Origin: a virus
Taxonomy: Duplodnaviria; Heunggongvirae; Uroviricota; Caudoviricetes
Direction: 5' to 3' (one strand)
Virus record (IMG/VR): IMGVR_UViG_2537562013_000016
Location: 1-9,704 of that record
Length of the DNA stretch: 9,704 nucleotides
Below, one piece after another: positions 8,251 through 8,404 of this stretch (positions are counted from its first letter, which is position 1; each line of letters opens with the position of its first letter). Under the pieces are notes generated by a model. It was not told where the DNA came from and did no database searches. It saw nothing but the letters and a program-made list of their open reading frames with translations. Made by a program: the position numbers and the translations under genes.

Positions 8251-8404
8251 TTGGGGGTACTTTAGGGGGTATTATTTCCTATTGAAATATCAGCACCCCC
8301 ATAATTGGTAAAATATGATATATAACAACGGCTTTCAACAACATCTTTGTTATACAAGGGGTGCATTGGGGGTATCAGGTTAATTACTGGCAGAAGTCCC
8401 CCTC
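8251..8404. repeat. Candidate integrase arm-type binding repeats (TTGGGGGTA-like) between att core and int start
   Basis: GGGGGTA at 8253-8259, 8265-8271, 8368-8374; inverted or variant copies near 8294-8303 and 8397-8404. A GGAGG ribosome-binding site for int follows at 8429-8433. Confidence 0.4.

Follow-up and report, generated by a model that had tools for sequence, protein, structure and literature searches.

In phage lambda, the two-specificity integrase Int acts through arm sites (P1, P2, and P′1 to P′3) that flank the core, with IHF sites located between the arms and the core. The locus described here would follow the same principle, although its integrase carries an N-terminal domain of the Arm-DNA-bind_3/DUF4102 type, as opposed to the lambda type, and both the motif and the site numbers differ. 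A closer counterpart is phage P4, whose attP arm sequence repeats were reportedly described by Pierson and Kahn in 1987. The P4 record (GenBank X51522) annotates a 12-bp “attP arm sequence repeat,” TTGGGGGCAT, which can be generalized as ATTGGGGGCAT(A/C). In the orientation of int, P4 has a tandem pair, ATTGGGGGCATA / ATTGGGGGCATC, on the int side of the core and 112 nt away from it, an inverted copy, GTGCCCCCAAATG, that overlaps the int ATG, and a tandem pair on the other arm, CAGTGGGGGCAC / AAAAGGGGGCAT, 53 nt from the core. According to a secondary account (PMC2951348), P4 Int represses Pint by direct DNA binding; Vis also represses P4 int expression (PMC7286903 and PMC2951348). In KplE1 (CPS-53), tRNA and int (intS) follow each other in the same orientation, as they do in the present locus, and the int promoter lies inside attL, where arm-type P′ sites and excisionase sites overlap the promoter, which is repressed by Int (Panis et al. 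2010, PMC2951348). However, the arm motif of KplE1 is a conserved TAAA element and its target is argW, whereas the locus described below has runs of five G's (G5) and the target selC. Finally, Chitto et al. (2020, PMC7286903) found strong repression of the intI promoter by IntI itself in the pathogenicity island PAI I536 of uropathogenic Escherichia coli 536.

The stretch of DNA analyzed here (the window; 9,704 nucleotides of a Caudoviricetes record from IMG/VR) is mostly P4-like. Positions 654 to 7989 are 98% identical to phage P4, in the order cos (635–653, minus strand), psu, delta, sid, immunity region, alpha, and crr repeats, and the att/int module differs from that of P4 from position 7990 onward. 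A search against Rfam retrieved the P4 immunity RNAs alone (C4 antisense RNA at 3770–3857, isrK at 3585–3662, and the c4 a1b1 target at 3572–3624), with no match in the att region. Past the P4-like part, the window contains a core followed by an integrase gene on the same strand, so that the intergenic region represents an att arm:

8120–8140, plus strand: selC-derived core, GACTCCTGTGATCTTCCGCCA, common to both tandem elements (see below) and without a mismatch to the tRNA-Sec 3′ end of E. coli F8111-1SC3, as expected from its earlier description as selC derived

8439–9630, plus strand: P4-family tyrosine integrase gene (int), with the Pfam domains Arm-DNA-bind_3, Phage_int_M, and Phage_integrase and one extra G at 9234–9235

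The two sides of this core have different sources. Positions 1 to 8141 are 99.7% identical to the P4-like prophage of E. coli 14EC007, which resides at selC, has its own TGTATA-class int (classes are defined below) at its far end next to selC, and has an attR core that ends exactly at the position equivalent to 8141. Positions 8117 to 9704 match the selC-int junction of E. coli F8111-1SC3 at 1586 of 1588 positions; in that genome, a 99.9% identical int heads a 44-kb tia/leoABC island. As the window splits at 8141 into two sources, the junction is a hybrid, with two elements stacked at one core. Judging from these alignments, positions 1 to 8141 are a P4-like prophage with its own TGTATA-class integrase outside the window, positions 8142 to 9704 are the attL arm and the frameshifted int of a second selC island, and the core region is a junction at which the attR of the prophage and the island's attL arm are joined through their common core. 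The preliminary description of this DNA had assumed an attP context for the repeats. This part of it does not hold: a genuine attP of the P4-like element was rejected in view of the TGTATAA repeats on the left arm versus G5 on the right and the split at 8141, so that what is seen is a hybrid attR/attL of two tandem selC elements whose arms carry different motif classes.

Stacking of the same kind, in the order selC, integrase, P4-like element, core, second integrase or its remnant, IS elements, and LEE, is found in O157 and O145 strains. In the O157 strain FDAARGOS_293 (locus L004, 20641–20760), a third copy of the selC core lacks 1 nt (GATC-TCCGCCA). A G5 pair precedes this copy, and the first ∼40 nt of another attL arm follow it, cut short ahead of ISEc8, annotated as an element of the IS66 family. 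Three att junctions are therefore stacked before LEE at the selC locus of O157.

Within the window, the exact heptamer GGGGGTA is present on the plus strand at 8253, 8265, and 8368, and a repeat search recovered the respective direct copies as TTGGGGGTA, TAGGGGGTA, and TTGGGGGTA at 8251–8259, 8263–8271, and 8366–8374. An inverted GGGGGTA with one mismatch is found at 8294–8300. All copies are confined to the 298-bp spacer between the selC core and the int ATG (8439) and comprise three direct, two inverted, and one degenerate repeat (8248–8404), which are short, unlike the core, and present in both orientations. In the following list, invariant columns refer to an alignment of 15 selC loci that is described below.

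8248–8259, plus strand: predicted distal arm-type repeat 1, CTTTTGGGGGTA, the counterpart of the P4 repeat ATTGGGGGCATA; 7 of 9 motif columns invariant

8260–8271, plus strand: predicted distal arm-type repeat 2, CTTTAGGGGGTA, placed head-to-tail after repeat 1, with 8 of 9 columns invariant

8294–8305, minus strand: predicted distal inverted arm-type repeat, ATTATGGGGGTG on the minus strand, 31 nt past repeat 2; 7 of 9 columns invariant

8356–8363, plus strand: proximal degenerate repeat with a run of four G's (G4), AAGGGGTG, read from the sequence

8366–8374, plus strand: predicted proximal arm-type repeat, TTGGGGGTA, 11 nt past the G4 copy; 5 of 9 columns invariant; candidate operator for Int autorepression

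8396–8404, minus strand: proximal inverted copy, GAGGGGGAC on the minus strand, with CCCCC at 8398–8402, 30 nt past the proximal G5; the weakest member of the set, in which the C4 core alone is kept and 4 of 9 columns are invariant

The three direct and two inverted or variant copies noted earlier were thus recovered, including their coordinates. The spacer holds 5 of the 18 G5/C5 runs of the window, against 0.41 expected from the rest of the window (Poisson P = 7e-5), and when the spacer was simulated 20,000 times with a first-order Markov model, only 4 simulations contained three or more copies of GGGGGTA. The geometry of the proximal set is canonical, with a pair spacing of 11 nt and the inverted copy 30 nt later, so that this set resembles a second copy of the arm module. 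Formation of a G-quadruplex was considered and dismissed because the four same-strand G runs are separated by an 87-nt gap. The open reading frame at 8109–8285 (58 amino acids), which overlaps the att arm and has no Pfam match, was treated as spurious.

Comparison with P4 reveals a common core motif, W-GGGGG-Y-A, which takes the form T(T/A)GGGGGTA in the window. In both cases there is a 12-bp head-to-tail pair on the int side, at 107 nt from the core in the window versus 112 nt in P4, and the offset from G5 to C5 is 31 in the window and 30 in P4. Both in P4 and in the cognate element of the window integrase, the opposite arm has a further pair ∼55 nt away from the core. The adjoining integrases are alike in their N-terminal domains (60% identity in residues 1 to 62), whereas the bodies are just 43% identical. 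The differences include the target (leuX for P4, selC for the window), the nucleotide that follows the G run (C in P4, T in the window), and the position of the inverted copy. The distal inverted repeat at 8294–8305 is the counterpart of the inverted copy found over the ATG of int in P4 and in the canonical members of the family; in the window it has been moved off the ATG by the addition of ∼135 bp, which include an IHF site, as predicted from PAI I536 (see below), and a second, weaker module. On sequence grounds, the G5 repeats are a selC-island member of the long-known family of P4 arm repeats: real, conserved, and ordinary. They are, with high probability, P′ arm-type binding sites for the integrase encoded at 8439–9630 and they belong to the arm of the second selC island, not to that of the P4-like prophage. 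What is unexpected is only that two different tandem mobile elements supply the two sides of the core; there are two modest twists, a module that has been duplicated and displaced and a hybrid junction whose other side carries a second specificity class.

The left side of the core (7993–8117) has no G5 repeat and contains TGTATAA twice, at 8044 and 8056, 12 bp apart, in full agreement with what had been read from the sequence before. Two features of this arm can be recognized:

8041–8064, plus strand: predicted arm-type pair of the other element, ATATGTATAAGG / ATGTGTATAAAT, 55 nt to the left of the core and cognate to the TGTATA-class integrase of the prophage

8095–8107, plus strand: AATCAAATGGTTA, which fits the IHF consensus perfectly (the only such match found) and lies between the core and the TGTATAA pair

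The int gene of the P4-like prophage next to selC, in 14EC007 and in O157, is preceded by TATGTATAGTAA / TGTGTATAGATT and then has TTATACACATG over its start codon, which is the P4 layout with a different motif; there is no G5 repeat at this selC-adjacent integrase in the P4-like prophages of either 14EC007 or O157. The far arm of these prophages is the left arm of the window. In the 24.7 and 31 kb of sequence examined, TGTATA pairs with the 12-bp spacing are found solely at the two arms of the prophage, so the TGTATAA repeats of the left arm can be assigned to the prophage's own integrase as its arm sites. The presence of TGTATAA rather than G5 on this side follows from the hybrid nature of the junction between two tandem selC elements. 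At the far edge of the left arm, just past the P4 crr homology, TGCGTG occurs twice, 10 bp apart (8003–8018); these repeats are also present in O157.

Relatives of the intact integrase were collected at 160 loci from species-representative genomes and viral contigs, and upstream DNA was extracted for the 125 of them that had enough upstream sequence. In ∼100 of these 125 loci, G5 runs are located 12 bp apart, at −50 and −38, a C5 run lies over the ATG, at −6 or −7, and the gap between the tRNA gene and int is 160 to 177 nt. This layout does not depend on the target, which can be any of six tRNAs (tRNA-SeC, Arg, Gly, Thr, Phe, or Ser). In the selC clade, the gap is larger, 209, 243, or 293 to 299 nt, with unrelated sequence between the inverted copy and the ATG, but the pair and the inverted copy keep their places despite this growth. 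The leader itself is hypervariable, with unrelated inserts of ∼45, 80, and 135 nt depending on the sublineage (gaps of 209 nt in L031, L033, and L034, 243 nt in L019, L021, and L045, and 298 nt in the window).

The 15 aligned selC loci of the window's lineage come from more than 10 genera, including Escherichia, Shigella, Salmonella, Citrobacter, Yokenella, Trabulsiella, Pseudocitrobacter, Yersinia, and Lelliottia. Invariant columns comprise 81% of the three distal repeats versus 34% of the rest of the spacer, and the distal repeats persist even where other sequence has taken the place of the neighboring 60 nt. Conservation is lower for the proximal copies (5/9 and 4/9 invariant columns), which in some relatives are reduced to G4 or C4; the O157 equivalent of the proximal G4 copy is a full G5, TGTGGGGGTGC. 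The motif search across related att regions that had been proposed for this locus thus found the G5 motif conserved across the family, and the lack of conservation named at the time as evidence to the contrary was absent.

Both arms of the cognate element carry the motif. In the 50 kb of F8111-1SC3 that include the tia/leo island, there are exactly two G5 pairs with 12-bp spacing, one in the int arm and the other, CATTTGGGGGTTCTTATGGGGGTTAC, 53 to 57 nt before the distal copy of the core; in the O157 island, the same pair likewise precedes the third, 1-nt-deleted core, again at 53 to 57 nt. The window's own left arm, which lacks such a pair, belongs to a different element. A LEE-linked int of O157 FDAARGOS_293 (L004, 15640–15845) has a deletion of ∼105 bp from the first distal G5 to the proximal G4, which removes one arm module together with the IHF-site block and leaves TTGTGGGGGTGC / ATTGGGGGTATC, that is, a single module.

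The window integrase has an Arm-DNA-bind_3 domain (PF13356) at residues 3 to 88 (3.7e-29), and its residues 1 to 96 match two arm-type binding domains of known structure, from the HAI7 and HPI integrases (PDB entries 3JU0, E = 2.3e-30, and 3JTZ, 1.5e-22). The N-terminal domains found next to G5 arms share the signature G[LM][YF]L ... [KRS]YWR[ML]KY, and those next to TGTATA arms, the signature GL[SA][LI]L ... K[GA]WR[FYL]R[YF]. These residues divide the two motif classes 101 to 13, the O157 hybrid junction being the single apparent exception. In a single-sequence AlphaFold model of Int residues 1 to 100, a low-confidence model (pLDDT 56) that was used for the strand positions only, the signature positions are located on the predicted strands 25–30 and 36–44. 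The selC TGTATA-class integrase is 73% identical to that of the window in the body and 60% identical in the N-terminal domain. Two integrases that both target tRNA-Ser (loci L055 and L072) are 93% identical in the body but 58% identical in the N-terminal domain, and their arm motifs differ, whereas L072 and L081 are 93.5% identical in the N-terminal domain and 71% in the body and share the same motif. Across these sequence comparisons, the arm motif goes with the N-terminal domain and the target with the body. Shared ancestry is a partial confounder of this co-variation, but the domain-swap pairs argue otherwise. Four tRNA-Thr loci on viral contigs (L157, L159, L162, and L164) represent a third class of arm motifs, with the tandem pair AAACGGGTACAT / AAACGGGTATCT, a further copy, GGCGGGTACC, over the ATG in direct orientation, and the N-terminal signature DGNGLILL ... 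KYWRYRY. With respect to the 4-fold autorepression reported for selC-intL of EDL933 (Panis et al., PMC2951348), the IntL tested in that work appears, judging from another O157 strain, to be the TGTATA-class integrase of the P4-like prophage and not a member of the G5 class of the window.

The same co-variation bears on the possibility that the G5 repeats are bound not by Int but by an accessory protein, the candidates being a Vis/AlpA/TorI-type directionality factor and a protein of the host. Such a role could be expected from the fact that excisionase sites are likewise short direct repeats next to arm sites and from the repression of int by Vis in P4, mentioned above. However, in near-isogenic pairs the motif class switches with the N-terminal domain of the integrase, and the motif stays constant over unrelated cargo (P4-like satellites, the tia/leo island, and the LEE-linked island), which makes an accessory-protein site improbable. 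Furthermore, a separate set of repeats is the better candidate for recognition by such a factor:

8219–8244, plus strand: three direct repeats with a 10-bp period (GTCAAC at 8219, TTCACC at 8229, and ATCAAG at 8239), directly 5′ of the G5 pair

A 10-bp phasing is the usual pattern of excisionase sites. Repeats of the form (A/G/T)TC(A/T)A(C/T), with the same phasing, precede the G5 pair in 44 distinct loci of the family, and those at 8219–8244 look like candidate sites for a recombination directionality factor (Vis/AlpA/TorI-type excisionase). Positions 8167–8172 of the window also belong with these phased repeats.

The regulatory role of the spacer can be approached through PAI I536, which has the same selC-int arrangement. 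The PAI I536 primers MC125 and MC124 (PMC7286903) map to 8334–8353 and 8357–8371, respectively, with one mismatch each, which shows that the intI promoter region is homologous to that of the window; it maps onto 8334–8377. The construct that starts at the equivalent of 8334 was fully repressed, the one that starts at the equivalent of 8357 gave ∼20-fold more ON cells, and IHF bound the former fragment but not the latter (PMC7286903). The segment that distinguishes these constructs corresponds to the following feature:

8334–8356, strand not assigned: conserved AT-rich block, CTTTGTTATACAAGGGG, among the best conserved in the spacer; matches the PAI I536 segment whose removal abolishes IHF binding

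Since constructs starting at either point show both expression and repression, the operator lies downstream of 8334/8357. The proximal repeat at 8366–8374 is within the PAI I536-equivalent fragment that still showed repression by IntI (PMC7286903). By analogy, the proximal G4/G5 pair and the inverted C5 can be inferred to constitute the operator, and the Int operator or arm sites of the homologous PAI I536 sequence are assigned here to the G5 repeats on the same basis. The right arm contains no match to the IHF consensus with one mismatch or less, even though the homologous PAI I536 segment binds IHF. A search of 7950–8500 yielded no sigma-70 consensus on the plus strand and one weak match, at chance level, on the minus strand, and manual reading of the hexamers gave no convincing −35/−10 pair for int.

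An alternative is that the G5/C5 runs act as RNA, with the direct and inverted copies forming hairpins in the int leader that control translation or termination. The int gene of P4 is said to be regulated also after transcription initiation, reportedly by the account of Piazzolla et al. from 2006, and in the minimum-free-energy fold of 8300–8460 (z = −2.0) the G5 at 8368–8372 pairs with the C5 at 8398–8402. Yet this z score is modest, with 6 of 200 shuffled sequences folding equally well, and inverted DNA-binding sites are complementary by construction. The best-conserved copies, at 8248–8305, include a tandem pair in the same orientation, which cannot form a hairpin, and the same pair is found on the distal arm, far from the int transcripts. 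An RNA-level role of the repeats is accordingly very improbable.

Compared with the intact 396-amino-acid gene (WP_001218920.1), the window arm and int are identical at 1586 of 1588 positions, with a 1-nt gap: the extra G (GG instead of a single G) splits int into the frames 8439–9275 and 9154–9630. With only 2 of 1588 positions differing from an intact copy, the frameshift is either a very recent pseudogenization or a sequencing error. Given the frameshifted integrase, the G5 sites may currently be unused in this element. One could go further and regard the repeats of this window as an inert relic, sites that nothing binds or uses, as would be consistent with the split int, the location of the arm in a tandem array, and the O157 strains that show a natural 105-bp deletion between the G5 repeats in an IS-riddled island. 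This is unlikely: the arm and int are just those 2 positions away from the intact copy, the sites themselves are intact, and a related integrase could serve them in trans. In any case, this alternative concerns the present activity of the sites and not their identity.

The identification of the G5 repeats as Int arm-type sites, which the preliminary description had expected to find near an autoregulated int promoter, is thus supported by the likeness to P4, the conservation of the repeats, their presence on both cognate arms, the co-variation with the N-terminal domain, and the autorepression and IHF site demonstrated for PAI I536 (PMC7286903). In the mechanism that can be proposed, the N-terminal domain of Int would bind the G5 repeats while its catalytic body binds the selC core, and, together with IHF, an intasome would be formed for integration and excision. 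The distal set (the pair at 8248–8271 and the inverted copy at 8294–8305) would represent the ancestral, family-wide module, and the ∼135 bp would have been inserted in this lineage between that module and the ATG, bringing an IHF site and the weaker module (8356–8374 and 8396–8404) with the same geometry. This second module would most likely serve as an operator, at which Int, with IHF, represses its own promoter. Both the physical binding of Int to the repeats and the division of labor between the two modules are what we infer from these data.

Taken together, these observations lead to a broader proposal, which is tentative and, as a whole, somewhat less probable than its opposite: the selC integrases would comprise at least two arm classes (G5 and TGTATA), set by a few β-sheet residues of the N-terminal domain and swapped by domain, and the duplicated proximal module with its IHF site would be a dedicated autorepression operator, distinct from the sites used in recombination. 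None of this would alter how arm-dependent tyrosine integrases are generally understood. If the proposal is true, tandem elements at one tRNA gene would be mutually orthogonal, with the prophage and the island excising independently across the hybrid junction that they share. A likely function can now be assigned to the best-conserved noncoding blocks beside the integrases of selC islands (PAI I536, tia/leo, and LEE-linked), and the sequences through which Int probably represses its own promoter in PAI I536, where such autorepression has been measured, are indicated as well. The G5/TGTATA rule, combined with the N-terminal domain signature, would provide a simple means of telling from the sequence which integrase acts on which end of a tandem array and may help predict which pathogenicity islands and satellites are still able to excise.
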